Made by a program: the position numbers and the translations under genes. Source: an uncultured Alphaproteobacteria bacterium (GTDB taxonomy: Bacteria; Pseudomonadota; Alphaproteobacteria; Rs-D84). Taken from it: 64,000 nucleotides of DNA. Positions 3,881-43,935 of the stretch are shown here, piece by piece. Location of the stretch: contig CALXMQ010000003.1 of the NCBI GenBank assembly GCA_944389515.1, positions 44,762 to 108,761 of the forward strand, read 5' to 3'. A model generated the notes under the pieces. The model worked only from the letters and a program-made list of their open reading frames with translations, had not been told where the DNA came from and made no database searches. The stretch's first letter is position 1. Every line of letters starts with the position of its first letter.

Positions 3881-4768
3881 TTAATCAATTCCCATGCCAA
3901 ATCTGTCCCAGCGCATTTTATTTCCCCAATTCCAAAACGCCAACATTGGTGAATAATAATTATGCGAATACCATATAAACCAAACCGGCCCCAGCACATT
4001 GTCACGTGGGACATATCCGATATCAGCACGACTGTCCCCACTGTTATCGCGATTATCACCCATAAAGAAATAATGATTTTCAGGCACCGTGAACATCATT
4101 GTATTATCCAATGGTCCTTTGTCAGTCATTTCAACAATACTGTGCGCGACACCATTTGGTAATGTTTCTGTGTATTCTGTGCCAGCGAATACCCCACACG
4201 CCCATTGATTCTGGTTACAGAATTTATCATCTTTGTATTCAATGGTATAATTGAATTCCGCAGGCTTGTTATCAACCCAAACCTTGTTTCCCTGTATCAT
4301 CATATTTTTTTCTGGGATATGATAACCAGCACTGCGTAATGATTTCGGCAAGGTGGCAATAATATATGGACGTGGATTTTCACGTGGAACAATTTCACCG
4401 TTTATATACAACCGACCGTCCATCATTTGTATTGTGTCACCAGGCTTTCCAATCAAACGTTTAACATAATCCTGGGATTCATTGATTGGATTACGAAACA
4501 CTATTACATCGCCAATTTCTGGTTCATGACCCCAAAAACGCCCGTTCCACAAGTGCCACGAGCCAAATGGAAACGAATAACGCGAATATCCATATGGCCA
4601 TTTTTCTACAAATATATGATCACCAACATGCAACGTTGGTATCATTGACCCAGATGGTATATTAAATGGTTCTAATAAAAAACTGCGAAACGCAATCGCA
4701 ATCAGCGCACCATAAAATATGGTATTAAACCAATCACGTGCAACATTTGATTTCTTTTTAACGGGCAT
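3881..4768 (-). CDS. lepB: Signal peptidase I
   Basis: PFNIPSGSMIPTL (catalytic Ser), DYVKRLIG (Lys), GDNRDNSGDSR; canonical lepB-rnc order. Confidence 0.96.
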   Translation of the reverse strand: MPVKKKSNVARDWFNTIFYGALIAIAFRSFLLEPFNIPSGSMIPTLHVGDHIFVEKWPYGYSRYSFPFGSWHLWNGRFWGHEPEIGDVIVFRNPINESQDYVKRLIGKPGDTIQMMDGRLYINGEIVPRENPRPYIIATLPKSLRSAGYHIPEKNMMIQGNKVWVDNKPAEFNYTIEYKDDKFCNQNQWACGVFAGTEYTETLPNGVAHSIVEMTDKGPLDNTMMFTVPENHYFFMGDNRDNSGDSRADIGYVPRDNVLGPVWFIWYSHNYYSPMLAFWNWGNKMRWDRFGMGID

Positions 4769-4846
4769 GATGTTTTTATCCTTGGGCTTTATACGGGCAC
4801 CATTTTATAACTTGAATTGATTTTGCGCAAGTTTTAATATGCAAAT

Positions 4847-26495: not shown

Positions 26496-29400
26496 TTACA
26501 TACTGGTCAAAAATGCTAAATCAGGTGAACAAATTATCCCCAAGCCTTTATCGCTGGTATAGCGCCCTTCCCTGAAATCTATACCACGTGATTTCAGTTT
26601 TTCGCGCAACATACGCCATGTTTCTTGTTCGCCAACGCGGTTCATATCATCCAGTAAAATAACAAATGAAGCATCCAAATTATCTACGATATCCAGAATT
26701 TCTGGGCGTGAGTAATGGTCACTGCCACGTGGGCCATCAATCAGCACCAAATTAAATTTTGTTTTTCCGATGGCATCTGAAAACCCATGATACGTTCTGG
26801 ATTCGTATGGTGGGACAATTTGCACATTTACTGCATCTAATATAGTTGTATAATCAGGTGCATCAGGCATTTGCCGGGCAAAGAAATTCAACCAATCTGG
26901 ATTATTTTCACAAATCATCAATTTTGCGCCCGTGGCACGCGCATATTGTATGGTCAATTTTGACGATTGCCCCAGTCCGCATTCCAGTATGCTGGTGGGA
27001 CGCATTTCATCCAAAACACGATACAATACGTACAGCACAATATAAGACACCGCCCAACGCCCAGGCGACACACTTTTGTTATTCAGCCATGAACTGTTTG
27101 ATATCGTATCATGATAAACATGCGCCCAATATTGTTCAGAATCACGCAAAGATAATTCAGATTGATTACGTTGCACTGCGTCGCCAACCGCAGAAACAGC
27201 CGTGGTAATTTCTGAATTTAATGCAGAAATCTGGTCACCCATGCCATGGCGCATGTTATCAACCGCATCAGTCATATTTTTTGATGCAGTGGCCACGGAA
27301 ACATTGACCGCATTACCCATATCTGTAATTTTAGTATTTAGTTCATCGCGTGCATTATCCACAGATTTATGCAATTTTTTATTCAGCAAATTCGCAGAAT
27401 CTTTGACCACCGCATGAATACTGGCGATACGCCCGTCCAGTTGAACAATGCCGCCATGCAACGTTGTGTGTACAGTATCAGACACATTACGTACATTATC
27501 AGTGACATGTTTTTCCAGGCTGTGTGCGATTTTTTTGGATGATTCACGCATAACGTCCGCCATATCCAGCACACTGGCCGTACCATCAGTTACAACATTG
27601 CGGATTTCATCTGAAAATTCAGATATACGCGCCAAAATATTATTTTGCGTTTCTGAATTTGCCGCAATAATCCCAGTTTTCATACCATCCAGTTGCCGTT
27701 GCAATGTATCACAACGACGATTGATATCTGCAACCGCCCCCATAACCGCCGCATGGTTTTGATTTATCAAATCAACCATGTACCGTCGGCTTCGTGCATA
27801 CAGAACTGATTTTAAGTGGCGAAAAAAATATTTGATGTGATGCGCATTAAAACGTTTGTATAACCAAGATATAAATTTTTTTCTTTGAAATGACGGATAC
27901 ATTTTATTCACAATATCAGTCAATTCTGTTTTCTTGTATCTGTATGGTTCTGTTTCAATATCAACAACAACCTGGGCACCATTTTTAACCGGCATTTCAT
28001 ATGTAAATGGTGCACCATGCCATACAGATATTGGTTTTGATAATATTTCACGTCCATCAATACGCACAGAATTATATGTAACCCATAATGGCACGCGTTT
28101 GCCATCAATCATTTTATAAATTCCACGCAATGATAATCGTAATGTTCCATCACCATGTGATGTTATGACAATTTTTTGACGTTTTTGTGATGATTCAACG
28201 ACACTGCCGGTGCCAGATTCATTTTTGAACCAATCTGGTGTGAATACACGCGCACCAGACGCGACGACGTCCACAGTATTTGTTGATGCCCCAAAGTTTT
28301 TAATATCGACACGAAATACGTTCAAACTATTAAATATATTACGGATATTCATTTTATTCAAACGCGCCCGTCGACCCAACATAGATATCATGTAATATGG
28401 GAATAAAGCATATGTTTTTAACATGCTGTACCGTGGCAATTTATAATATTCACCAGTATCAATATTATATGCCCGTTTGGGTAATTTTAACATTTTACCC
28501 AACATCAGGTTTGTCGCGTCTGTATCCCATACCATAGCCCCCGAAGCTGGTGTAAATGTCATTTCACCAAAATATATTGTTCCATCATCTAATTGATAAA
28601 AATCAACACGGACATAATTAAAACCAGCAGATAATTGTTCCGCCAATTTTTTCATTTGCGCCAAAGACTTTGGGCGTGGTGCAACACTGGAATCAAACAT
28701 ATTATTGTTATAAAAACGTTGTTTTTTCCAATCAGGACTATAAAACGCCGTTTTAAGCCCAGTAGAGTTCCGTCCAGACAATAATTGAATATATTCAACT
28801 TTGCCGTTAAAACACCAAAATTTGTAATCATATAAATCATCTATGGTTTTATTTTCCATAAATTTTTCAATCATGATTTTTGGCTGAATTTCACGATAGT
28901 GTAATTCATATCCGTATTTGAACGCAAAATTTAGGTTCATCCAATAATCTAATTTTTTCTTTACATCTGCTAAATCTAACTTTGTTTTATCACGAACAAT
29001 TATATTCCATCCAGATCCGTGATTACATTTAATAACAAATCGTTTTGGTAATTTCGAAAAATCGATATCTTCGAATCTGTCATATACACCCAACAATGGT
29101 ATCAGATATTTATCACCAATTTTTTCGCGCACCCAATCACGCACCAACAATTTGTCTGCAAGACGTGTTTTTATCGGTGTTGAATCATATAATTTTAACC
29201 ATTGAATTTTTTCATTAAATGTTACAGGACGATATAAATTCAGATATTTATTACAACATTTATTATACCAATCTGATAATAATTGTTTATAATCCAAATC
29301 TGCCACAAAGCTTTTGTATAGTGACGTGTGTTTTGCATAATACCACCAATGTCGGGCATATACTAATTCTGGGTGATTCCATGGTTTTATAGCAGAAGTA

Positions 29401-31136
29401 TAATGAACAATCGATATGTTTTGCTTAGATTTTTCCTGTAATGCTTTATACTGGCTTAGTACATTACTGTTACCTATTGCAGATTGCCACATAAAATTCC
29501 AACCACCATCAATATATTTTACATTATCTTTGCATACCATGTTCAAAATATCTTGGTCGGGACATTTAAGTTGTGTATATTTTTCAACCAAATCAAAGCA
29601 TTTTTGTTCAAGATGTAAAGAATTCCATTTATCGACATTTATCAACAAAACGCCCGAATTAAAATAATCATCAGGATTTATACCCATTTTTTGCAAATAA
29701 TTATACATGCTCTGGCCAACATAATTATGAATCGCGGCAATGTAATTGTCACCAATTTGTTCCTGGAAAATATCGGCAACATCACGCAATATAACAATAT
29801 CACAATCTAAATATAACACACGATGCGCATTTGGAAACAAACGTGGTATCAAAATTCTGTAATACATTTCTGTGGAATAATGCGCCTTTGAATATAAGTT
29901 TATTGATTGAATATATTGATTTACATTGATAAATTTTATACTGATGTTTTCTGATTTTACCGACAATATATCATTTTTTGATTTTTGACTTAAACCACTG
30001 TGGAAAACGGCGATATTGTAAAAATAATTTTTATTTGAATTTTCAACCAAACTTTGCAGCGCAACAACCAAGTATTTAGCATAATTATCATTTGTTGCAA
30101 ATACTATGTTATATGCAAATTCTTGTTGCAGCATCTGTATATGCGATTTATCAAATAATTTGGCATATGTATCCAAATGCGAATAAAAATTATCAGGATT
30201 TTTTTGTATTTGATATTTTAATGAATCTTTAATACGATTATAAAAACCATGTTGTAATAATTGTTGGCGTTTTTGTGTCGTTAAAAATCTTTTTAATTCG
30301 TCAAACGCAATGTATATATTCAATGGATTTGATTTTGATAAATTTGCCGTAATTTGATTGCCTGTATTATATCTGTAATGTATAAATTTTTCTTTTATAA
30401 TGGATATTTTCGATGCAACAGCAACAGCCGCATAAGAAAAATAAACATCATTAGCATTTTCAATGCTTTGAAATTTCAAATTATATTTTGAAATCAATTT
30501 CGCATTAAAAATTTTATTCCAGCAATTTGGTGATGTCAGATTGAAAATTTTATCTTGTACATCATCTATATGTATAACACCTGTTTCTGGGACACATAAC
30601 CATCCCATTTCTTTTGTTACGTTATTTTTATAATCAATCATATCACCAGAAAAAATGCATACATCGGATTTATCTTTTTTTAATTTTGCATAACACTGGT
30701 CCAACATATCCAATTCAAAAAAATCGTCGGAATCCAAGAAAGACAAATATTCACCACGGGCAATGGATAAACCGGCATTGCGCGCCACGCCGGCGTGCAA
30801 ATTTTTCTGGCGCAGGACGGTTATACGTTTATCACGACGGGCGTAATCTTTCAAAATATCCAGCGAACTGTCCGTGGAACCATCGTCAACACATATTATT
30901 TCTATGTCTGGTAACGTTTGATTTACAACACTGTCCAAACATTGCGGTAAATATTTTTCAACATTATATACTGGGATTATAACAGACACACGCGGTTTAT
31001 ACGATATTTTGTTCTGTACAATGATTTCTGCGGTTGTATCTGGGTCGCCATCTGCGTTTTTGACAATTATGATATTATTTTTCGTTACCCGTTTATTCTG
31101 TGACTTCACAGTTTTTTTATTCATTTTCTTGGTCAT
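26496..31136 (-). CDS. 1546-aa multidomain glycan synthesis protein: GT2 + GT8 + TupA-like ATP-grasp + beta domain + long helical/coiled-coil + class I SAM methyltransferase-like
   Basis: VSVIIPVYNVEKYL...FLDSDD (GT2); IVFATNDNY, YLDCD, DQDILN, HYTSAIKPW (GT8); TFNEKIQWLK, DYKFWCFNG, YFGEMTFTP (ATP-grasp); ILECGLGQSS, LIDGP, LLDD (MTase). Confidence 0.85.
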   Translation of the reverse strand: MTKKMNKKTVKSQNKRVTKNNIIIVKNADGDPDTTAEIIVQNKISYKPRVSVIIPVYNVEKYLPQCLDSVVNQTLPDIEIICVDDGSTDSSLDILKDYARRDKRITVLRQKNLHAGVARNAGLSIARGEYLSFLDSDDFFELDMLDQCYAKLKKDKSDVCIFSGDMIDYKNNVTKEMGWLCVPETGVIHIDDVQDKIFNLTSPNCWNKIFNAKLISKYNLKFQSIENANDVYFSYAAVAVASKISIIKEKFIHYRYNTGNQITANLSKSNPLNIYIAFDELKRFLTTQKRQQLLQHGFYNRIKDSLKYQIQKNPDNFYSHLDTYAKLFDKSHIQMLQQEFAYNIVFATNDNYAKYLVVALQSLVENSNKNYFYNIAVFHSGLSQKSKNDILSVKSENISIKFINVNQYIQSINLYSKAHYSTEMYYRILIPRLFPNAHRVLYLDCDIVILRDVADIFQEQIGDNYIAAIHNYVGQSMYNYLQKMGINPDDYFNSGVLLINVDKWNSLHLEQKCFDLVEKYTQLKCPDQDILNMVCKDNVKYIDGGWNFMWQSAIGNSNVLSQYKALQEKSKQNISIVHYTSAIKPWNHPELVYARHWWYYAKHTSLYKSFVADLDYKQLLSDWYNKCCNKYLNLYRPVTFNEKIQWLKLYDSTPIKTRLADKLLVRDWVREKIGDKYLIPLLGVYDRFEDIDFSKLPKRFVIKCNHGSGWNIIVRDKTKLDLADVKKKLDYWMNLNFAFKYGYELHYREIQPKIMIEKFMENKTIDDLYDYKFWCFNGKVEYIQLLSGRNSTGLKTAFYSPDWKKQRFYNNNMFDSSVAPRPKSLAQMKKLAEQLSAGFNYVRVDFYQLDDGTIYFGEMTFTPASGAMVWDTDATNLMLGKMLKLPKRAYNIDTGEYYKLPRYSMLKTYALFPYYMISMLGRRARLNKMNIRNIFNSLNVFRVDIKNFGASTNTVDVVASGARVFTPDWFKNESGTGSVVESSQKRQKIVITSHGDGTLRLSLRGIYKMIDGKRVPLWVTYNSVRIDGREILSKPISVWHGAPFTYEMPVKNGAQVVVDIETEPYRYKKTELTDIVNKMYPSFQRKKFISWLYKRFNAHHIKYFFRHLKSVLYARSRRYMVDLINQNHAAVMGAVADINRRCDTLQRQLDGMKTGIIAANSETQNNILARISEFSDEIRNVVTDGTASVLDMADVMRESSKKIAHSLEKHVTDNVRNVSDTVHTTLHGGIVQLDGRIASIHAVVKDSANLLNKKLHKSVDNARDELNTKITDMGNAVNVSVATASKNMTDAVDNMRHGMGDQISALNSEITTAVSAVGDAVQRNQSELSLRDSEQYWAHVYHDTISNSSWLNNKSVSPGRWAVSYIVLYVLYRVLDEMRPTSILECGLGQSSKLTIQYARATGAKLMICENNPDWLNFFARQMPDAPDYTTILDAVNVQIVPPYESRTYHGFSDAIGKTKFNLVLIDGPRGSDHYSRPEILDIVDNLDASFVILLDDMNRVGEQETWRMLREKLKSRGIDFREGRYTSDKGLGIICSPDLAFLTSM

Positions 31137-31168: not shown

Positions 31169-31636
31169 TTATTTTTGTTTCATCGCCCGGATTTCTGTAC
31201 GCAGGCGTTCGTATTCATCGCGTACGCGGATTGGATATTGAAATGCGTAAACAATACGTTCACCCAAACTGTTGTGTGTGATGGCGTCTGGGGTGGTGCC
31301 GGCGATACCGGATACCGCACGAACATATCGCCCTTCGCGCCAACCAGAATCTATGTAATGCATCAATGGGCATACTTTGGCGACGGCAACATCTGGATTA
31401 TCGGCCAGGTACGCATCCCCATTAAATTTAGGTGATGGATTGCGACCTTCGCGCCAACCGTATTGTACATAATGTGTAATCGGATCTGCCCCAGCGGCGG
31501 CAACATCAGGGTATTTTGATAAATACCATTTTTCATCAAATAATTTTGATTTACGAACCCGGTGATGTAATAAAATACTTTCATATTTTTTACGACCAAT
31601 CAGTCCCAAATGCCGTAATAACTTTATTAAAAACAT
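31169..31636 (-). CDS. Standalone protein made of the glycan-locus repeat WYLxxYPDV...HYxxxGWREGRNPSP
   Basis: FDEKWYLSKYPDVAAAGADPITHYVQYGWREGRNPSPKF followed by a second copy. Confidence 0.7.
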   Translation of the reverse strand: MFLIKLLRHLGLIGRKKYESILLHHRVRKSKLFDEKWYLSKYPDVAAAGADPITHYVQYGWREGRNPSPKFNGDAYLADNPDVAVAKVCPLMHYIDSGWREGRYVRAVSGIAGTTPDAITHNSLGERIVYAFQYPIRVRDEYERLRTEIRAMKQK

Positions 31637-31676
31637 GTCCTGTTCCCTTTGATTTAATCAATTTTTGGCAAACAAT

Positions 31677-31809
31677 CTGACGGAGGTTAAAAATTTCAAA
31701 ACTCAGCCTCCTGACGGAGGTCAGACTGTCTGCCTGTTTTGAACGCTATAATAGTACTAGAAATAAAATCCTAAGCAAGTCATTTTTTTTGAAATCTAAC
31801 CTCCGTCAA
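31677..31809 (-). promoter_or_regulatory. Putative invertible promoter cassette 1 (sites A, B, C with GA core; promoter TTGCTT-16-TACTAT)
   Basis: A 31677-31690 CTGACGGAGGTTAA; B 31711-31724 CTGACGGAGGTCAG; C 31796-31809 inverted (rc TTGACGGAGGTTAG). The -35 (31773-31778) and -10 (31751-31756) lie on the minus strand between B and C. Confidence 0.8.
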
Positions 31810-31850
31810 AATGAAATATTCCATTGTTTTTTCAACAAAAAATGGAATAA

Positions 31851-31880
31851 AAAAATCGCCCCCAATGGGGCGTATTTTTT
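31851..31880. terminator. Terminator after ABC flippase, insulating cassette 1
   Basis: AAAAAATCGCCCC-CAAT-GGGGCGTATTTTTT. Confidence 0.75.
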
Positions 31881-31881
31881 A

Positions 31882-33846
31882 TTATGCGGCACTGGGGGCG
31901 TTGGGCGATGGCGGTGTCGCAGCATTTTGTGGTGCGGCCGGTGCCATAGGCGCGACCCCAGGCTGGGGCGCCGGTGTGGGCGCAATCGCCGGTTTTGGTG
32001 TTGGCTGAGCCGCCGGTTGTTGGGTTGGTTTTGCACCTGTATCTGTGCGACATTTGAACTGCATATCATACAATGTTTTGTATGCGCCGCATTCGTTTTG
32101 CATCAGTTCTTCGTGGGTGCCGGCTTCGACTATTTCGCCCTGGTTTACAACAACAATCTTGGACGCATTACGAATTGTTGACAATCTGTGCGCGATTACA
32201 AACACTGTTTTATCTTGCATCAGGTTTTCAATCGCACGTTGAACAACGGCCTCGGACTTATTATCCAGGGCGGATGTCGCTTCGTCCAGAATTAAAATCG
32301 GCGCGTTTTTCAAAAATGCACGCGCAATGGCAACACGCTGTTTCTGGCCACCAGACAACAATATGCCGCGTTCGCCGATTTGTGTGTCCAATCCATTTTT
32401 CAGACTGTGTATAAAATCATCTAAACATGCCATTTTTACCGCAGTTTGCAATTCTTCTTCGGTGGCATGTTCATTGCCCAGCATGATATTGTCGCGAATT
32501 GTACCAGCAAACAAGAAATTATCTTGGAACACAACGCCGATATTATTACGCAATGATTTTAATGTATAATCGCGGATATCTGTACCATCAACCAATATTG
32601 CCCCAGATGTCGGATCATAAAATCGTGGTAACAAACTGACCAATGTTGTCTTGCCCCCACCAGAATTACCAACCAATGCGATAATTTGCCCCTGGGACAC
32701 AGTTAAATTGATGTTCTTTAAGATTGGTACCCCTTTGTTATATTCAAATGACAGGTTCTTGAATTCTATGACCCGATGCGTCGCAGGCATTTCCCGTGCA
32801 TTTGGACGATCGGCAATCGCAGGTGCCTTGTCCATAATATCAAATACACGTTCAATCGCCATAAATGACATCAATACAGAGTTATAATTTGACCCCAGGC
32901 TTTTCATCGGGTTATACAACATTATCAATGCCGTTAAAAAGGACACAAATCCACCACTGGTGATATAATTATTCAATACCAGGTATGAACCAAACCATAT
33001 CGCCGCACCAATACCAATCGATAAAATTATATGCATAACAGGGGTCAACCAACGGGTCTTTTGCACCATTTTCATTTGCAATTTGAAAACGCCGTCCAGA
33101 ATCGTTTTGAATTTGTTTTGTTGATATTCGCCCAGGTTATACGATGTAATTGTCTTGTTCCCAGAATATGTTTCATTATATGCGGTCATCATGGTCGAAC
33201 TGGCCATAATATTGCTGTCGAATACAGATTGCAGTTTCTTTTTCAATGTCGTCATCGGCAAAAATGCCACAAATAAAATCGTGACGCAAACCGCCGCCAG
33301 TTGCCATGAATTATAAAACAAAACAAATATCAATGATATCGCAGTAAATAATTTCTGAACAAAGTTTTTTAAGTTTGTCAGCAATCCAGCGCACGCCATA
33401 TCTGCGTTATTGTTAAACATCATCAAAATATCGCCAGAATTTCTGCGGTTAAAGAAATTTGTATCAAAACTGAGCATTTTTTTATACAAATCTAGCTTTA
33501 ACAAATTTGTAATTTTTGCCCCAACCCACGTATTCAGATAATTTGCCGCGTATGTCAATGCACCCTGTAATGACGTAAATAAAACAATAACCAATGGAAT
33601 ATACCATGCCGCCTGTAATGATTTATCAATCATCACCAAATCCATATATGGTTTCAGCGACATGGCGATAACACCTTCGAGTGCCCCAATCGGCATCGCC
33701 AATAATATAGATAATAAACCCTGGAACCAGTATGGTTTTACATACGGCCACATACGTTTATAATTTTTAACTATTGCAGTACGCGCCAGTTTATGGGTGC
33801 TGGCTTTCTGTTTATCATCTTGCTTCATCTTTTTTATCCGCATCAT
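31882..33846 (-). CDS. MsbA/PglK-type lipid-linked glycan flippase ABC exporter with Pro/Ala/Gln tail
   Basis: TM domain, GNSGGGKTT, LSGGQKQR, ILDEATSALD; located inside the glycan operon. Confidence 0.88.
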   Translation of the reverse strand: MMRIKKMKQDDKQKASTHKLARTAIVKNYKRMWPYVKPYWFQGLLSILLAMPIGALEGVIAMSLKPYMDLVMIDKSLQAAWYIPLVIVLFTSLQGALTYAANYLNTWVGAKITNLLKLDLYKKMLSFDTNFFNRRNSGDILMMFNNNADMACAGLLTNLKNFVQKLFTAISLIFVLFYNSWQLAAVCVTILFVAFLPMTTLKKKLQSVFDSNIMASSTMMTAYNETYSGNKTITSYNLGEYQQNKFKTILDGVFKLQMKMVQKTRWLTPVMHIILSIGIGAAIWFGSYLVLNNYITSGGFVSFLTALIMLYNPMKSLGSNYNSVLMSFMAIERVFDIMDKAPAIADRPNAREMPATHRVIEFKNLSFEYNKGVPILKNINLTVSQGQIIALVGNSGGGKTTLVSLLPRFYDPTSGAILVDGTDIRDYTLKSLRNNIGVVFQDNFLFAGTIRDNIMLGNEHATEEELQTAVKMACLDDFIHSLKNGLDTQIGERGILLSGGQKQRVAIARAFLKNAPILILDEATSALDNKSEAVVQRAIENLMQDKTVFVIAHRLSTIRNASKIVVVNQGEIVEAGTHEELMQNECGAYKTLYDMQFKCRTDTGAKPTQQPAAQPTPKPAIAPTPAPQPGVAPMAPAAPQNAATPPSPNAPSAA

Positions 33847-33847
33847 T

Positions 33848-34525
33848 TTACATCAATTCATCATTTGTTGATATGTCTGTGTCGTATGTTTGGGGCATGC
33901 CACCATCCATTAAATTCTGTTTAATCCATATACCTATTTTGCGTTTTGTCTGGGCGCCTAAAACACGTTCAACTGTTATTTCGCGTACTGCCATAAATAT
34001 TTTTCTGGAATCTTTTGGTGGTGTATATGGCTGGGTTGCCAGAAATTGCAAAGACAACGTATCGTCTGACATTACCGATGCCGGAATATTGGCCACAAAA
34101 GGCCCGTCATATCCGACACGCCATACAGCAACCTGGATCCCGTTGGCCAAAACAGTTACCTGTTGATACGTGGCGGTATTCGGGTTAAACACCCCAAACG
34201 CATCAACCGTTACACGTAAATCTGTGCCGGCACCATTTGGAATATACAGGTTCAGCACCGATTCCATATTTAATGCACATCTGTGTTCTGGTTCTTGGCC
34301 GCCCCAACCGTCAGATGTTTTAATATATTCCGCACTGTTGCCATCACGTGCAAAAGATATCGGCGTACCTAAAATATATGGTCGAAATTTGTTCTTGTCA
34401 ACAGTTGTGGTGGCAATATCCGACATCATGGCGTTATTATATTGATGACGATATATCATAAATCCCCCACCAACAACCAATGCCACAGCGACAATCACAA
34501 TTAAAAATATCTTCCATTTTTTCAT
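33848..34525 (-). CDS. Membrane-anchored hypothetical protein (beta-sandwich-like)
   Basis: N-terminal TM anchor; GWGGQEPEHRC...VTVLANG pattern seen in glycan-locus accessory domains; coupled to neighbours. Confidence 0.55.
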   Translation of the reverse strand: MKKWKIFLIVIVAVALVVGGGFMIYRHQYNNAMMSDIATTTVDKNKFRPYILGTPISFARDGNSAEYIKTSDGWGGQEPEHRCALNMESVLNLYIPNGAGTDLRVTVDAFGVFNPNTATYQQVTVLANGIQVAVWRVGYDGPFVANIPASVMSDDTLSLQFLATQPYTPPKDSRKIFMAVREITVERVLGAQTKRKIGIWIKQNLMDGGMPQTYDTDISTNDELM

Positions 34526-37500
34526 GATTTTACCTGTTGTTGTTTTTTAGTTTTATTTCGCATATATTTGCATGCAAATAAATAATACGGAAATAACAAA
34601 TATGCCAGTAAAATATTTCCAAGACGTTCACGGCGTACTTCATAAAACACTTCTGGATATCGGGTCAAAACATTTTGTAATTGTTCATCGTTGTAACATT
34701 TTTCCACAGTATTTGTTTTCCACAGGCATTGGCCATCTTGACTGCCGGGGACAAAATTCAATGCAGAAAAACTGTTATTGATAATGTGTATCTTGGTGTG
34801 ATTTTTTACCGCCATTGCCCAAATCCATATATCATCAGCCATTGGGCACAATTCTAAAAATTCAGATTCATTTAATATATTTTTATCCAGACAATGTGGC
34901 GGATACAATACGCCACCAACACCAGTTAGAAAATTATTATACACCGCAGATTCATTTTTGAACGACATTTTCCATGCGTTATACGGTGCGATTTTTCCTT
35001 TATTAAACACAATTCTGTGTGCACGATGACAATGGATAATATTTGGACATTCTGAATATGCGTCCAGCAACAGTTTTAACCAATTTTCTGTATATAAAAT
35101 ATCATCGTCTGCGGTTACCAAAATCGCATCAGGGAATTCGCGCAATGCAGGAATAATCTTTTGAAAACTGCGTAAAGTTTTATCAATCCAATGAATTTCA
35201 AATGTATCATCCAACAAATCTGTCAAGTTACGTGGCAACGAAGGTCGTTTTTTTGGAAATTCTGCCCTGGACAGATATAAAATTATTTTGTCTGGTTTAA
35301 CAGATTGATTTTTCAATGTCTGGATTGTTTGATATACAGAATCGATACGCGCCGGATATGAAGTCACAGATACAACCACAGGATTAGTAATTTTGCATAA
35401 ACGTTCGCCCTTTAACCGCGCGACATCATAATATTCTTTGACATATGTTGGGCGCAATGATTTATGCATACCAGTAAAACGATTTTCATATTTGCCATAC
35501 TTTTCGTAATGCAGCAACGGATTTACCCCAGCACGCGCAACATCTGGGTTATTATATAAATATAATCCAGTATCAAATTTTGGTGACGGATTATATCCAA
35601 CACGCCAACCGGTATCTAGATAATGTTGCGCAGGATTTATATCCATTTGTGCTACATCCGGATACATACGCAAATACCAGCGCCGATTAAAATATCTGGA
35701 ATGCTTGATATATTCTAAATTTGATGAATAATTTTTCTTGTGTTTGAATAATTTTATAAACAGCTGGTTGGCGCGTACATTGGCGTGTTTACGCCATGTG
35801 GTAAAATTATGAATTTTTGCGATTTTCAATCCATGCCCAGCCACCAACAAACCAAATACAGTTTCTAAACTGTGGGCAACGGTACCAACACTGCCGGTTT
35901 TAGAATCTGCACTAAAATCAGATTCTTTGAACGGATATTGTTGAAATGGCAGCAATAAATCTGAACGCACCGCAAACATTGTTCCACATACAAATGGGCA
36001 AGTTGCAAAATATTTTACCCCCATTTTCTGGCATAATTGTTCCGTATTTTTCGCCTGAGACGTTTTTTCTGTATCACCAATTAAATTACCACTGCCGACC
36101 ATGCCGACGCCTTTGCGTTTAATCAAGCGTGACAAACGTTCAAATTGATGACGCGACCCAATCAATGGATTTATTAAATCGTCATGCCATTGCCAACCAT
36201 TGTATATAATCCCGTTTTTTATCCATGGTGTTGCCCTGGCATTTTTAGTATGCATTTTCAGCACAAATATGTAATCAGCCAAAGACACTTGTTGCAGAAC
36301 CAACCAAAACGGATATATGTCATAACCGCGATTTGGCACATGCAGAATATGAACATCTGGTTTGAACTGTTTCAGTTTATATTCTGTGGATGCGACATGT
36401 TCTGTTACCGTAACATATAAATCATAATCACGGGTTATATTTTTTAATCGATGTAAAAACCAATCCAACTGGTCATGATAAAATAAATGCAAATGAACCA
36501 AGATTTTATTTATTTTATACTCTGTTACTGACGGCTTATAATTATGAAAGACCAATTTGAATTCAGGATGAAAACGCAGGCTGATTTTATCAACAGGATA
36601 ATGACGTATTCCATTTTTCCATAATAAATAATTAAAGCTTAGTTGATCACGTCGTGAATAATTTTTAATAAAATCCCACCATTGTTCACATAATTTTTTT
36701 ATTTTTGCATCATTATGACGTCGTAATAAAACATTTGTTTCGTACAACCCATTATGTTCAGGATATTTATCTGCACGCAATATTTGCATTTGTGTATTTA
36801 TCAAATCAGGATTATCTTTGCCATCAGCGATACATGCCGCAGCTTCATCATAAATACAATCGCGATGTGGATGCAATGATATTGCAATTTTATGATTTGC
36901 ACGAATATGCTTGTTTATCAATTTATATATCGCAGGTCCACTGATTTGAATATTACTGTCCATCCAAACAGAATATTTGTATTCCGGGAATAAAATGTGG
37001 GGATGTGTTTTATGCCATCTGGCATTACGAACATTATCTGCCTTAGAAAACGCCAAAGGTTTAATTTGCCACCATAAAAAACGCTTCTTTTTTAATAACT
37101 TTGCATTATCTGTAAATAAAACATAATCAAAATGTGCATCAGGATAAAAATCAGTTATAATTTCATCATATCCACCAGATATACAAGAATAAATCACACA
37201 ATTTATATTTTTTATTGCATCGTGTTTTGCCCAATATTGTATCGATACATTTTCATCAATATATGAACCCGTGGTATAATTATGTTTATGACCGAATTGT
37301 TCATAATGCAATAATGGGTTTATGTGACAATCTTGATAACGTTTCAAATACCCATTTGTATCAAATTTAGGGCTGGGGTTGCGGCCTTCGCGCCAACCAT
37401 ATTGCATATAATGACGCACAGGATTTATCCCGGCGCGTTTAACGTCGGGATACATATTCAAATACCATTTTTTATCAAAATACTTTGATTTTGATATCGT

Positions 37501-37533
37501 TTTATAATCTTTGTCGCGATGCGATATCGTCAT
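34522..37533 (-). CDS. 1003-aa multidomain glycosyltransferase: repeat + DUF616-like + RgpF-like + repeat + GT-A domain
   Basis: VIYSCISGGYD, WMDSNI, SRRDQLSF (DUF616); VHLHLFY, NRGYDIYPF, KMHTK (RgpF); VSVTSYPARI, TADDDILY, TGVGGVLYPP, ADDIW (GT-A). Confidence 0.82.
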   Translation of the reverse strand: MTISHRDKDYKTISKSKYFDKKWYLNMYPDVKRAGINPVRHYMQYGWREGRNPSPKFDTNGYLKRYQDCHINPLLHYEQFGHKHNYTTGSYIDENVSIQYWAKHDAIKNINCVIYSCISGGYDEIITDFYPDAHFDYVLFTDNAKLLKKKRFLWWQIKPLAFSKADNVRNARWHKTHPHILFPEYKYSVWMDSNIQISGPAIYKLINKHIRANHKIAISLHPHRDCIYDEAAACIADGKDNPDLINTQMQILRADKYPEHNGLYETNVLLRRHNDAKIKKLCEQWWDFIKNYSRRDQLSFNYLLWKNGIRHYPVDKISLRFHPEFKLVFHNYKPSVTEYKINKILVHLHLFYHDQLDWFLHRLKNITRDYDLYVTVTEHVASTEYKLKQFKPDVHILHVPNRGYDIYPFWLVLQQVSLADYIFVLKMHTKNARATPWIKNGIIYNGWQWHDDLINPLIGSRHQFERLSRLIKRKGVGMVGSGNLIGDTEKTSQAKNTEQLCQKMGVKYFATCPFVCGTMFAVRSDLLLPFQQYPFKESDFSADSKTGSVGTVAHSLETVFGLLVAGHGLKIAKIHNFTTWRKHANVRANQLFIKLFKHKKNYSSNLEYIKHSRYFNRRWYLRMYPDVAQMDINPAQHYLDTGWRVGYNPSPKFDTGLYLYNNPDVARAGVNPLLHYEKYGKYENRFTGMHKSLRPTYVKEYYDVARLKGERLCKITNPVVVSVTSYPARIDSVYQTIQTLKNQSVKPDKIILYLSRAEFPKKRPSLPRNLTDLLDDTFEIHWIDKTLRSFQKIIPALREFPDAILVTADDDILYTENWLKLLLDAYSECPNIIHCHRAHRIVFNKGKIAPYNAWKMSFKNESAVYNNFLTGVGGVLYPPHCLDKNILNESEFLELCPMADDIWIWAMAVKNHTKIHIINNSFSALNFVPGSQDGQCLWKTNTVEKCYNDEQLQNVLTRYPEVFYEVRRERLGNILLAYLLFPYYLFACKYMRNKTKKQQQVKS

Positions 37534-37934: not shown

Positions 37935-38765
37935 TTATGCCCCATGGAATATAAACAGTCTTTGATAATTTATATCTGTCAATTTTGGTACAATCACTTT
38001 GATTTCCAGACCCGCAAAAACAGGTAACAAAATTGTTTCGCGCATGCCGGTTGTCATACGACGATTATATATTGTTTTTGCATATGGGGCTTCGATACTG
38101 ACGTCCGAATTGGCCCCAGGCACAAATACCAATGTCAACAGACCGTGCGCTTCGGGTGTATATGTGTATGTGCCTGCATCTGTGCCCAAGAAATTCAAAC
38201 TGATTAAATCACCATCTATCAGTGACCATCCAATCACAGTGTTGCGACCATCGGCAGTAAAACTGGTCGCATTTTGCAATGCAGATATATCTGTTTTTGT
38301 GCCGATGTTTTCAACACCACCCAATGCGGTCAGTTGTTGACCGATGTTGTCCAGTCGTTGTATAAAAGCATCAAAATCTGGTAAATTTACAATATCTGAA
38401 TACTTGGTTGCAAAATCATCCAATGTACCGGCAAAATCTTTTAATTTTTCAATTACAAAAGAAAAATCTTGGTTTAATGCAACTGTGTCAATCGGGACTG
38501 TCGGTTGATAATCCACAATTCGTGTCAATCCGATATTGCGCGAAATTTTAATTTTTGCACCGGAAACTGGCGCTGTATCAAAAACTATTGTTCCCCCAGA
38601 ATATGGAATATCTGATGGTTCTGGACTGTCTGTGGGTGATAATTGAAACCCAGAATTTATTGTCGTACCGTTCACGTTTACCACAACATCAGATGCGGTA
38701 AAAAACGGAAATGAAAAAACAAAATCCTTGGTTTGTCCATCACCCGTGTATGTTATTGTTGTCAT
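37935..38765 (-). CDS. Short phage tail-fibre protein with T7 gp17-like N-terminal adapter domain
   Basis: TYTGDGQTKDFVFSFPFF...VVVNVNG...IVFDTAPVSGAKIKISR...VDY...ALNQDF; RBS AAAGG before ATG 38765. Confidence 0.75.
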   Translation of the reverse strand: MTTITYTGDGQTKDFVFSFPFFTASDVVVNVNGTTINSGFQLSPTDSPEPSDIPYSGGTIVFDTAPVSGAKIKISRNIGLTRIVDYQPTVPIDTVALNQDFSFVIEKLKDFAGTLDDFATKYSDIVNLPDFDAFIQRLDNIGQQLTALGGVENIGTKTDISALQNATSFTADGRNTVIGWSLIDGDLISLNFLGTDAGTYTYTPEAHGLLTLVFVPGANSDVSIEAPYAKTIYNRRMTTGMRETILLPVFAGLEIKVIVPKLTDINYQRLFIFHGA

Positions 38766-38894
38766 TTTGTTCCTTTCTTTTATCAGATAAAAAAAGTGCG
38801 CCAATCGCGCACAACAAAAAATTCGGGGATGTTTTATCCCCGAATTGTTGGATATAAGTATATCATAAAATCATAAAAAAATCAACATGAATCA

Positions 38895-39905
38895 TTATTT
38901 ATGCGTAAAAATTTTAATCAATGGTATAAAATCAAACAAATACACTTTGTAACATGTCGTTGTTATAATATCATGACGTTGCCGATAAATCGTTACCAAT
39001 GGTATTGATAAAAAAGTCAAACGATAACTTTTTTCATAACGCGGTTTTTCACTGATTGCCAACTTTAACCCAACGCGCATGGCGTTTTGATAAATTTTAT
39101 CCACCAATACCGCAGATGCATACGGATACAAATATTGTATCCCCGGTAAATTAGGCAAAGAATTCTTTTTCAAAAATGGCAAACCACTTTTTAACATTTC
39201 TAGTGGTTTATCATATACACGATGCATTTTATCGCCAACTTCGCCACTGATATACGTAGACATCCGGTACCCATGTTGCAATACGCGTTGTGATAAACCG
39301 ACTTCATATTTCAGTACAATCAACTGCTTATCAACCTGGTGTGTAATTTCGTTCATAAATTCATGTAAAAATGCAGAATTCGCAACACGACGCGATAAAC
39401 CAACAAACCAAGATTGAACCTGGACAGGTGTTGCCTGATTCGCAAAATCAATCATGCCAGTTAAATCCACACCACGTGTTTCTAAGTCAACCAGAATTCC
39501 TTCGATATCAAACAGTGGGCCATATACACTGTCATTTACCAGATAAACCCAATCATATTTATTTAATAAATTATTTTTATCTGCCCATTGATATCCACGT
39601 TTATATGAACCAAAGTCATATTCGCCATGGCGTTCGGCCTTGGCATGTAAAATGTTTGGTATTTCTTTTAACTTGTCCAATTCTGGGTCAGATACCTTGT
39701 TATCCATAAAGAATATAACATCGCCATACCCAGACAGGCATTGCAAATAATGTAACAAGGAATCGTCTATAATTCCTTGGGCATCATAGCCAGCAAATAA
39801 AAATAATCTTTTTGTGTTCATAATTTTGCCTGCTGTACCACCAGATGTTTTATATCGTTTTTGTTGCATGTGTATCCCCTGGTATTTAGTGCAAAACACG
39901 CGCAA
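38895..39905 (-). CDS. Rhamnan synthesis protein F (RgpF)-family glycosyltransferase; true start probably near 39820-39870
   Basis: LFLFAGYD..GIID, GEYDFGSYKRG, LVNDSVYGP, VQSWF, YEVGLSQ, PFLKK. Confidence 0.82.
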   Translation of the reverse strand: MRVFCTKYQGIHMQQKRYKTSGGTAGKIMNTKRLFLFAGYDAQGIIDDSLLHYLQCLSGYGDVIFFMDNKVSDPELDKLKEIPNILHAKAERHGEYDFGSYKRGYQWADKNNLLNKYDWVYLVNDSVYGPLFDIEGILVDLETRGVDLTGMIDFANQATPVQVQSWFVGLSRRVANSAFLHEFMNEITHQVDKQLIVLKYEVGLSQRVLQHGYRMSTYISGEVGDKMHRVYDKPLEMLKSGLPFLKKNSLPNLPGIQYLYPYASAVLVDKIYQNAMRVGLKLAISEKPRYEKSYRLTFLSIPLVTIYRQRHDIITTTCYKVYLFDFIPLIKIFTHK

Positions 39906-39906
39906 T

Positions 39907-40030
39907 CAAACGGTGGTTAGCCAAATAATAAACTGACGGTGGTCAGATTGTCTGCTTGTTTTGAACAACAACATGGTACTGGAAATAAAATTTATATCAA
40001 GTATTTTTCTTGAATTTTAACCACCGTTAG
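39907..40030 (-). promoter_or_regulatory. Putative invertible promoter cassette 2 (sites A', B', C' with GT core; promoter TTGATA-16-TACCAT)
   Basis: A' 39907-39920 CAAACGGTGGTTAG; B' 39933-39946 CTGACGGTGGTCAG; C' 40017-40030 inverted (rc CTAACGGTGGTTAA). The -35 is at 39995-40000 and the -10 at 39973-39978. Homologous to cassette 1. Confidence 0.8.
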
Positions 40031-40039
40031 ATTGAAAAA

Positions 40040-42669: not shown

Positions 42670-43935
42670 ATGAACATAGCAGTTATAGGTTCTGGATACG
42701 TTGGATTACCAACAGCATGTGGTTTGGCCAGTTTTGGTAACCATGTTGTATGTATCGACAACAACGAACAAAAATTGGCAATATTGCAATCTGGCCATAT
42801 GCCATTGTTCGAAGACGGATTGCAAGAATTATATGAATCTAATAAAAGCAACATCAGATTTTCTGGCGATATGTCAGATGTTCGCAATGCAAATTTAATT
42901 ATATTGGCCGTTGGCACACCAATGGCAGACGATGGGTCTGCGGATTTGCAATACATATATGAGGCCGCTGCTGAAATAAAACCTTTCTTGCAAAACGGTG
43001 CAATCGTTGCCACAAAATCAACAGTACCAGTTGGAACAAACGATGAAATAGAACGCATAATCGACAATAAAAATGTAACTGTTGTATCTATGCCGGAATT
43101 TCTGCGCGAAGGTTACGCACTGCATGACTTTTTCCACCCAGACAGAATTATAATCGGTACTGATAATGTCGATGCGTATAATAAACTGCGCGATTTGTAT
43201 GCACCGCATATTTCACCAGATAAAATAATTCGTACCAGTCGCCGTTCTGCGGAAATTATTAAATATGCATCAAATGCGTTTTTGGCAACAAAAATCCAAT
43301 TTATAAACGAAATCGCAGACCTGTGTGAACAAGTTGGCGCAAATGTATCAGATGTTGCCGACGGTATGGGCATGGATTCCAGAATTGGTCGCAAATTCTT
43401 GAACGCTGGTATCGGATACGGTGGCAGTTGCTTTCCAAAAGACACAAATGCATTGGCATATGTGGCCAACAAGCATGGCGTACATTTAGGATTGGTTTCT
43501 AAAACAATCCAGGGTAATCATGAACGCCGTCAAAATATCGCAAATCGCATAAACGCACAAATTGATAAAATTGGTGAAAATGCACGCGTGGCAGTTCTGG
43601 GGTTGGCGTTCAAAAATGGTACAGACGATGTCAGATACAGTCCTGCCATTGATATTATTAAAAACATACGTCATAACCAAATTTATGCATATGACCCCCA
43701 GGCAATGAAAAATGCATCAAATGTATTGGAATCAAACGTTAAATATGCAAATTCATTGCATGATTGCGTTGAAAATGCAGATATAATCGTAATCTTGACA
43801 GAATGGCCGGAATTCCGCGAACTGGAATCCGCAACATTTGAACATCCAACAATCATACTGGATTTCAGAAACCTGTTGGACGAAAACGTAATGTCCGCCA
43901 AAGAAAATGTAACATACAAACGAATTGGGAAATAG
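42670..43935 (+). CDS. ugd: UDP-glucose 6-dehydrogenase
   Basis: IGSGYVGL, AVGTP, KSTVPVG, PEFLREG, KYASNAFLA, GYGGSCFPKD. Confidence 0.95.
   Translation: MNIAVIGSGYVGLPTACGLASFGNHVVCIDNNEQKLAILQSGHMPLFEDGLQELYESNKSNIRFSGDMSDVRNANLIILAVGTPMADDGSADLQYIYEAAAEIKPFLQNGAIVATKSTVPVGTNDEIERIIDNKNVTVVSMPEFLREGYALHDFFHPDRIIIGTDNVDAYNKLRDLYAPHISPDKIIRTSRRSAEIIKYASNAFLATKIQFINEIADLCEQVGANVSDVADGMGMDSRIGRKFLNAGIGYGGSCFPKDTNALAYVANKHGVHLGLVSKTIQGNHERRQNIANRINAQIDKIGENARVAVLGLAFKNGTDDVRYSPAIDIIKNIRHNQIYAYDPQAMKNASNVLESNVKYANSLHDCVENADIIVILTEWPEFRELESATFEHPTIILDFRNLLDENVMSAKENVTYKRIGK

Follow-up and report, generated by a model that had tools for sequence, protein, structure and literature searches.

In the 64,000-nucleotide stretch of contig CALXMQ010000003.1 from an uncultured alphaproteobacterium that we analysed (the window), one gene on the minus strand (26496..31136) codes for P0001, a single polypeptide of 1546 amino acids (aa) made of six parts. 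These are an inverting glycosyltransferase of family 2 (GT2), a retaining glycosyltransferase of family 8 (GT8), a TupA-like ATP-grasp domain, a beta-sandwich, a long helical spacer and a methyltransferase-like domain at the C-terminal end. By analogy with known systems we read P0001 as a machine of reversed order, in which a polymerase and an amidoligase, a spacer and a methyl-capping enzyme may cooperate on one surface glycan; we give this reading a probability of just under one half (about 0.48). The observation itself is confirmed, as the six parts are real and far beyond chance, and the interpretation of the protein as a ruler carrying a terminator is plausible. The gene has an ATG start and no internal stop, and it takes up 0.49% of the chromosome of a host whose genome is 947 kb in length and is estimated as 98.6% complete.

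Pfam matches, AlphaFold2 (AF2) models, Foldseek comparisons and periodicity analysis placed every part where the first-pass annotation, made from the sequence alone, had put it. With the earlier limits in brackets, the spans on the minus strand are about 30995-30237 for GT2 (30995-30350), 30116-29316 for GT8 (30115-29320), 29213-28488 for the TupA-like ATP-grasp (29230-28480), 28322-27945 for the beta-rich domain, which is a beta-sandwich in AF2 (28320-27930), and 27716-27123 for the helical segment of 18 hendecads (27780-27130). For the C-terminal part, described earlier as similar to S-adenosylmethionine (SAM)-dependent methyltransferases, the Foldseek fold, motif I and the acid of strand 2 all agree with that description. 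The phrase "five-activity fusion" was right as a list of domains and overstated as a count of activities, because the helix has no enzymatic role and no activity is assigned to the beta-sandwich. No transmembrane segment was found in P0001 (the highest Kyte-Doolittle mean over 19 residues is 1.15).

The C-terminal domain (26499..27119, minus strand) comprises 207 residues, 1340-1546. In the AF2 monomer model of residues 885-1546, calculated with a 46-sequence alignment, it is an alpha/beta domain with a predicted local distance difference test score (pLDDT) of 84-95. Foldseek against the PDB matched it with cation-dependent class I O-methyltransferases at E about 1e-7, probability 1.0 and a target template modelling score (TM-score) of 0.5-0.59. 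All 50 of the 50 listed chains have the class I methyltransferase fold (E 1e-7 to 1e-5), among them COMT, Rv0187, CCoAOMT-like proteins, TomG and SafC, with sequence identity of 10-21%. Motif I reads ILECGLGQSS, and in an 18-member alignment (A1; consensus ILE-x-G-x-GQ) its residues E1385, G1387 and G1389 are invariant, as are E1410, which closes strand 2, D1467 within a DGP motif, D1496 and D1497. By our reading of the strand order, the three last-named residues would match the metal ligands of COMT. The catalytic lysine, which we take to follow the first metal-binding aspartate in COMT, is not evident in the C-terminal domain.

Sequence searches gave much less. In Pfam and NCBIfam scans of the whole protein the C-terminal domain matched no family above threshold; its own best Pfam match was IRX15/GXM, at E 0.072 and 13 bits against 27.8. 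Among the 18 relatives, 12 match IRX15/GXM (best E 4e-4) and six match Methyltransf_24; the weak Pfam matches of the domain comprise GXM/DUF579, Methyltransf_24 and RrnaAD. The 18-sequence profile found nothing significant among PDB sequences. Its best matches were PilT (E 0.14) and KsgA (E 0.26), and the KsgA alignment pairs the KsgA motif I and strand 2 with the family motif I and E1410. Since the sequence searches gave nothing above threshold, the fold is derived from AF2 and Foldseek. The evidence supports a domain which, as modelled, resembles SAM-dependent methyltransferases at the level of fold and motif and stands outside the curated families.

The lack of any curated methyltransferase family above threshold would also be expected if the domain were a catalytically inactive module of methyltransferase fold, serving for docking or sensing, for example towards the exporter, with P0001 then being a polymerase-amidoligase only. 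We hold this to be quite improbable. Motif I (E-x-G-x-G-Q), the strand-2 acid and the three acidic residues are invariant in the family, and in a near-identical protein, described below, an FkbM methyltransferase takes the place of the domain.

The methyltransferase-like domain is preceded by a helical spacer (27123..27716, minus strand) of residues 1141-1338, built of 18 uninterrupted hendecads. The hydrophobicity of the rod has a period of 3.65 residues with a power of 218, against 35 +/- 12 in 200 shuffles (z about 15), and the hendecads show no phase shift across the 18 repeats. Large hydrophobic residues occupy hendecad positions a, e and i in 67%, 89% and 72% of cases and every other position in at most 17%; a heptad layout gives no comparable contrast. 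There is no proline in 1141-1338, and the wider segment 1126-1340 has a net charge of -6 and three aromatic residues out of 215. AF2 models the rod region as three helices of about 74 residues each (1086-1158, 1164-1237 and 1256-1331) with pLDDT 37-57. The hendecad register continues through both break sites, each of which lies near a glycine cluster, and this unbroken register favours one continuous helix, short of proof. The rod would be about 11 nm long if the three helices are antiparallel, with its ends still apart, and up to about 29 nm long if it is one continuous coiled coil. The three AF2 helices were also compared as possible repeats of one another and this was rejected (pairwise z-scores -0.2, 0.2 and 3.2).

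Just before the rod lies a basic, aromatic amphipathic helix (27762..27884, minus strand; residues 1085-1125). With a net charge of +10 and nine aromatic residues out of 41, it is the most cationic stretch of P0001 and a candidate for a membrane-proximal anchor at the rod base. WbdD carries a membrane-binding amphipathic helix at the equivalent place, the polymerase end of its coil (PMC11231755).

The regular hydrophobic stripe of the rod allows another reading, namely that it is an amphipathic helix of the apolipoprotein or perilipin type, lying flat against the inner membrane or against lipid-linked intermediates and thereby tethering the enzyme. The 11/3 periodicity with its straight stripe and the weak Pfam matches to Apolipoprotein A1/A4/E and ApoLp-III speak for this. 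However, the segment is net acidic (-6) and has no lysine-flanked faces, the stripe, a narrow one of 3 positions in 11, consists of the small residues V, A, I and M, with three aromatic residues in 215, and the separate basic aromatic helix 1085-1125 is the better membrane binder. This is the least probable of the explanations we considered. The assignment of the rod to Apolipoprotein A1/A4/E (PF01442) was itself rejected: the match has 31.4 bits against a gathering threshold of 90, and only the 11-residue periodicity is common to both. The matches to apolipoproteins, ZorA and tape-measure proteins all reflect periodicity only.

It is useful to follow the same combination of parts across the relatives of P0001. 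A search of 5.8 billion proteins gave 316 relatives, and the six parts were mapped on the best 120 of them. The family core of about 1170 aa begins with one to three GT2 modules, joined in some members by GT8, and continues with TupA and one to three beta-sandwiches. In 46 of the 120 homologues this core is followed by a linker of 135-742 aa and then by the same C-terminal domain. The linker is mostly a proline-poor periodic helix, with DUF1796 inserted in some cases. The span of 135-742 aa exaggerates how far the helix length varies: P0004 and P0005 differ by 203 aa through an inserted DUF1796 with no extra helix, and some of the long linkers contain PF08795. This DUF1796 (PF08795, a putative papain-like peptidase) stands between the beta-sandwich and the helix in many relatives, such as P0005, P0013, P0080 and P0104.

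The enzyme at the end of the rod varies, and some members carry an FkbM methyltransferase there. P0013 and P0025 share 98% identity across residues 1-1106, and their helices are homologous; P0013 ends in the COMT/GXM-like domain and P0025 in an FkbM methyltransferase. Of the indirect evidence that the rod end serves for methyl transfer, the best is this replacement of one methyltransferase by an unrelated one at the same place. In homologues P0104, P0078, P0034 and P0096 the helix leads instead to a phosphoribosyltransferase-like domain and a sequence with a DxDGVL motif. The Pfam matches to phosphoribosyltransferase are weak and occur in P0104 and P0034, while the DxDGVL sequence has the look of a HAD phosphatase and no Pfam match. 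We take this pairing to resemble the ribofuranose-adding enzymes of capsule pathways, and it hints at an end modification other than methylation.

A profile of the terminal domain was then compared with 1.84 billion cluster representatives (50% identity). It found 3900 proteins, each representing a cluster, 557 of them below 1e-30. Among the 150 best matches the domain is C-terminal in 149, and 125 of the 150 have a total length of 243-686 aa, of which 31-474 aa precede the domain. Where this N-terminal extension reaches about 100 aa or more, it is mostly one of the proline-poor helices with a period of 3.5-3.7, which are often internally repetitive. Uncultured gut Alphaproteobacteria are listed first among the taxa, which also include Elusimicrobiales, Akkermansia, Bacteroidales, several Clostridia, Coriobacteriia, Gastranaerophilales and Methanobrevibacter. 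In a Methanobrevibacter metagenome-assembled genome (L039, 1717-3681) a 654-aa protein has the same C-terminal methyltransferase-like domain after an N-terminal part with the appearance of a glycosyltransferase, a Lys-rich linker and a coiled coil of about 60 aa; its gene is flanked by glycosyltransferase genes.

Gene context was looked up for three stand-alone proteins from this census, the third of which lies on a contig too short to judge. The first adjoins genes for multiple glycosyltransferases, a dehydrogenase and an epimerase together with an ABC-2 permease, and the second belongs to a Wzm/Wzt cluster that also contains GT2 genes and a GlfT2-like gene. Thus two stand-alone relatives are found in Wzm/Wzt glycan clusters, the setting where coiled-coil terminators occur (PMC11231755).

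A second allele of the gene exists within the same species. At the conspecific locus L015, whose flanks are 97% identical in DNA, the allele P0009 codes for 1142 aa. Its residues 1-112 are identical to those of P0001, and the part corresponding to residues 1116-1546 (rod and methyltransferase) is 99% identical. Between them the 2.9-kb core of the window allele (27790..30731, minus strand; residues about 136-1115) is replaced in L015 (5776-7505) by an unrelated 1.73-kb GT2'-GT8' cassette without TupA or beta-sandwich. This is an intragenic, serotype-like exchange of cassettes. Mosaics akin to this core exchange are seen among more distant relatives. The allele pair supports modularity, and judged from the two sequences the rod and methyltransferase appear to behave as a fixed chassis.

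The same facts may be explained in a different way. The methyltransferase could decorate internal residues of every repeat, with the helix as an oligomerisation device or scaffold; chain length would then be controlled by something else, or by nothing. Stand-alone relatives in which a mere 20-60 aa precede the domain fit this proposal, as do the closest weak family matches, which are to decorating enzymes (GXM glucuronoxylan 4-O-methyltransferase and Methyltransf_24), the pairing of the same methyltransferase with two polymerase cores, and an exporter on which no cap-reading carbohydrate-binding domain was detected. However, there is no benefit for a decorating enzyme in sitting on a rod of 200-470 residues. 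The coupling to a helix in thousands of proteins, the position distal to the polymerase and the presence in Wzm/Wzt clusters fit the pattern given for terminators (PMC11231755). We regard decoration as rather unlikely, and as the strongest competitor of the capping machine proposed here.

Several of our own results weigh against that capping machine. The AF2 monomer breaks the rod near the glycine clusters at low pLDDT (37-57), and the periodicity of the rod is 11/3, whereas the characterised rulers are of heptad type. The C-terminal domain falls under every curated family threshold, and its profile has no significant match in the PDB. Some stand-alone relatives are almost without a helix (20-60 aa precede their domain), which shows that a ruler is not needed for the domain to work. 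One 99%-identical methyltransferase on two different cores is not what one would expect of a terminator that recognises a single terminal sugar. Finally, the exporter of the locus is MsbA-like and not of the Wzm/Wzt type found with the WbdD and WbbB prototypes, in which Wzt usually bears a cap-binding carbohydrate-binding domain, and Pfam and NCBIfam detected no cap-reading carbohydrate-binding domain on it.

The first three domains of the protein score well over their Pfam thresholds. The GT2 module (30237..30995, minus strand; residues about 48-300) matches PF00535 over residues 51-176 at E 6e-38; its DxD motif is DSDD at 135, and its sequence matches in the PDB are chondroitin synthase and GalT1. 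The GT8 module (29316..30116, minus strand; residues about 341-607) matches PF01501 over residues 343-587 at E 6.5e-46, with PDB sequence matches to LgtC (4e-27) and to the GT8 domain of WbbM (3e-22). Its motifs are DCD at 444 and H..KPW at 584, and the DxD motifs of both modules and the KPW motif of GT8 are intact. The TupA-like ATP-grasp (28488..29213, minus strand; residues 642-883) covers positions 1-240 of the 241 of PF14305, with E 1.1e-54 and 186 bits against a cut-off of 25. By analogy it is a candidate amidoligase acting on the carboxylate of a uronic acid. The locus has a candidate supplier of uronic acid in a gene of the UDP-glucose/GDP-mannose dehydrogenase family (42670..43935, plus strand), whose substrate specificity is assigned at the family level only. 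It is a probable Ugd, which would provide the activated uronic acid, and it is also found, in synteny, in the homologous locus L009.

After the TupA domain AF2 predicts a long helix (28323..28424, minus strand; residues 905-938) with an LFPYY motif followed by basic residues. The motif LFPYY(L/M) with its basic run (residues 910-914, 28395-28409) recurs after the TupA domain across the family, and a near-copy of it ends the neighbouring 1003-aa glycosyltransferase (near 34522-34640). The helix may lie on the membrane surface, and the shared motif may be a common anchor to that surface.

The beta-sandwich (27945..28322, minus strand; residues 939-1064) is a jelly-roll in AF2. Folded alone it has a pLDDT of 90.8, and in the model of 885-1546 its value is also >90. 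It is present in 106 of the 120 homologues, in one to three copies per family member. Foldseek against PDB and BFVD gave weak jelly-roll matches only, namely the lambda gpJ tip, carbohydrate-binding module (CBM) family CBM35, which binds uronic acids, PA14 and C1q-like domains. The best PDB matches have E above 0.005, and the target TM-score for CBM35 is a weak 0.38-0.39. Therefore no CBM family is assigned, and the modelled domain can be called carbohydrate-binding-like.

How might these parts work together? P0001 would be a cytoplasmic, membrane-peripheral synthase that unites the building of a surface glycan in one chain. An invertible promoter, switch 1, lies directly ahead of it, and a 155-aa gene and the P0001 gene probably form one transcription unit. 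Judging from the chemistry of their families, GT2 and GT8 would alternately add two sugars to a lipid-linked primer, one of them probably a uronic acid made with the help of the neighbouring dehydrogenase. The TupA ATP-grasp would turn the uronic carboxylate into an amide, as Cj1438C suggests, while the jelly-roll might perhaps hold the nascent chain or aid oligomerisation. Helix 1085-1125 would keep the catalytic end at the membrane, and the acidic rod of 18 hendecads would project the methyltransferase away from it. Only chains long enough to reach the cation-dependent O-methyltransferase would be methylated at their growing end, and extension would then stop, by analogy with WbdD, WbbB and O7 ORF6. 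The MsbA/PglK-like exporter with its 225-aa partner may carry the product across the membrane, a step suggested by the conserved gene neighbourhood. We infer polymerisation, amidation, capping, measuring and export by analogy from Cj1438 (PMC11800379) and from WbdD, WbbB and O7 ORF6 (PMC11231755).

The surrounding locus has one direction, as every gene from 40750 down to 26496 is on the minus strand. In order it comprises an Mpi-family invertase (255 bits to NF009949), a small inverted-repeat element (39903-40034), RgpF-like and TOD1/RgpF glycosyltransferases, a 225-aa protein, the exporter, a terminator hairpin (31846-31883) after the exporter gene, switch 1, the 155-aa gene and the 1546-aa gene. 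Between the glycosyltransferase genes of the locus lies a gene for a 289-aa protein (37935-38804, minus strand) with a phage tail-fibre-like N-terminus (TITYTGDGQTKDFVFSFPF...), for which no Pfam or NCBIfam match was found.

Switch 1 (31673..31813) is an invertible promoter segment bounded by 17-nucleotide inverted repeats (31673-31689 and 31797-31813), with a third site at 31712-31725. A promoter-like pair TTGCTT ... TACTAT, read by eye, faces the 155-aa gene and the P0001 gene in the window. In the conspecific assembly (L015, about 4695-4835) the segment of about 107 bp between the repeats is inverted, while its flanks align perfectly. The earlier proposal that the gene is under the control of switch 1 is therefore reasonable, with the repeats directly upstream and the segment found inverted in a second assembly. 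Such a dedicated invertible promoter suggests that, in the animal gut, the bacterium uses the glycan as a surface antigen that varies.

The 155-aa repeat protein (31169..31636, minus strand), with its WYLxxYPDV...GWREGRNPSP repeats, stands between switch 1 and the P0001 gene. Its gene is on the same strand and 32 nucleotides upstream of the P0001 gene, so that the two are probably co-transcribed. The module (F/Y)D..WYL..YPDV...G.NP..HY...GWREGRNPSP makes up the whole of this protein, and it appears to recur several times in the 1003-aa TOD1/RgpF glycosyltransferase (34522-37533, minus strand). No curated family matches the repeat module.

The exporter (31882..33846, minus strand) is a fused ATP-binding cassette (ABC) half-transporter of MsbA/PglK-like type, with 539 bits to TIGR02203 against a cut-off of 602. 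Its last 50 or so residues (31882-32040) form a Pro/Ala/Gln-rich low-complexity tail, KPTQQPAAQPTPKPAIAPTPAPQPGVAPMAPAAPQNAATPPSPNAPSAA. We considered that it might be the housekeeping MsbA; a second MsbA-like gene in the genome (G000:C1:38150-39862) has a nearly equal score. The exporter of the locus is a candidate for flipping the finished lipid-linked glycan. Adjoining it is the gene of the 225-aa protein (33848..34525, minus strand), which has one N-terminal membrane helix and no family match. This gene lies directly beside the exporter in three of three related loci (the window; L009, 16177-16854; L015, 1983-2660), so the pairing of the 225-aa protein and the ABC exporter is also present in the homologous locus L009. 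The homologous locus of P0024 has the same frame of dehydrogenase, TatD, ThiF, glycosyltransferases, giant synthase, 225-aa protein and ABC exporter.

If our reading of P0001 is true, the ruler principle would extend to uncultured minimal-genome gut bacteria and to a methyltransferase family without a curated model, as well as to glycans which are amidated during synthesis and exported by an MsbA/PglK-like flippase. The 207-residue C-terminal domain, with its 3900 clusters at 50% identity, would serve as an annotation marker for such systems. The allele pair, in which the same rod and methyltransferase are joined to different cores, would be a natural test of terminator specificity and of coupling to the polymerase. 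A wider proposal is possible, although we think it doubtful: that the C-terminal domain and helix belong to a very large unannotated class of inverted ruler-terminators, cation-dependent O-methyltransferases on variable rods, which spreads from gut Alphaproteobacteria and Elusimicrobia to Clostridia, Akkermansia and Methanobrevibacter and works with flippases of MsbA/PglK type as well as with Wzm/Wzt. Here the chassis would be fixed, the polymerase cassettes recombined and the expression phase-varied by the invertible promoter, and a genome of 0.95 Mb would thereby gain several states of its surface glycan.

How close does P0001 come to systems already described? To our knowledge, the proven cases of a coiled coil acting as ruler for chain length are confined to a few O-antigen systems of enterobacteria. 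In WbbB (K. pneumoniae O12 / Raoultella terrigena) and WbdD (E. coli O9a/O8, K. pneumoniae O3/O5) the coil holds the terminator away and its length sets the chain length. The first-pass annotation chose its precedents well when it cited WbdD and WbbB, and the coiled-coil terminators also include K. pneumoniae O7 ORF6 (PMC11231755). It was also correct that TupA-like enzymes are an amidoligase family (Cj1438C, PMC11800379). The basic helix 1085-1125 of P0001 stands at a place equivalent to the membrane-binding helix of WbdD. In contrast to the P0001 fusion, WbdD is separate from its polymerase, and the terminator of WbbB is a GT99 transferase of 3-deoxy-D-manno-oct-2-ulosonic acid (Kdo). The ruler function is proven for WbbB and WbdD, while the ruler role of P0001 rests on analogy. 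The solved WbdD and WbbB chains are not among the PDB sequence matches of whole P0001 (E <= 0.01), and both proteins are absent from the profile matches of the C-terminal domain (E <= 10) and from its top 50 Foldseek matches.

Those Foldseek matches point to a different group of enzymes. COMT, CCoAOMT-like proteins, Rv0187, TomG and SafC have the fold, motif I and the strand-2 acid in common with the P0001 domain, whose three invariant acids may correspond to their metal ligands. The solved COMT-type relatives use small catechols, not glycans, whereas plant GXM/DUF579 methylates glucuronic acid on a polysaccharide.

For the N-terminal half the nearest known system is in Campylobacter. Cj1438 of C. 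jejuni NCTC 11168 (HS:2 capsule) and HS19.11 have an N-terminal GT2 and a TupA-like ATP-grasp which amidates the C6 carboxylate of glucuronic acid (PMC11800379). Cj1438 and P0001 share this pair of domains in one chain, and a Campylobacter protein, P0112, is in the same homologue set as P0001. However, Cj1438 (776 aa) ends after the ATP-grasp and is without GT8, beta-sandwich, rod and methyltransferase.

The whole architecture finds its counterpart in K. pneumoniae O7 ORF6, a protein of 1414 aa (Kelly et al. 2024, PMC11231755). That study treats an extended coiled coil with a distal terminator as the sign of chain-length control that depends on an ABC transporter. By domain architecture, the two proteins are alike in their GT2 modules, a beta-sandwich or CBM-like domain and a long spacer, which in P0001 may be of coiled-coil type. 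In both, the methyltransferase domain sits away from the polymerase, and the glycan pathway of O7 ORF6, as presumably that of P0001, depends on an ABC transporter. In contrast, the methyltransferase is N-terminal in O7 ORF6 and C-terminal in P0001, and it is CgnL-like in the former and COMT/GXM-like in the latter. O7 ORF6 has a kinase and makes a methyl-phosphate cap, while P0001 has no kinase. P0001 differs further by the extra GT8 and TupA amidoligase and by its hendecad spacer, and its locus has an MsbA-like exporter in place of Wzm/Wzt. The ruler principle is thus already published, for WbbB and K. pneumoniae O7 ORF6, and P0001 differs from them in variant features. New in the protein are the reversed order, the fused amidoligase and jelly-roll, the pure hendecad rod and a methyltransferase of an unannotated family; new at its locus are the MsbA-like exporter, the private invertible promoter and the allele with the exchanged cassette.

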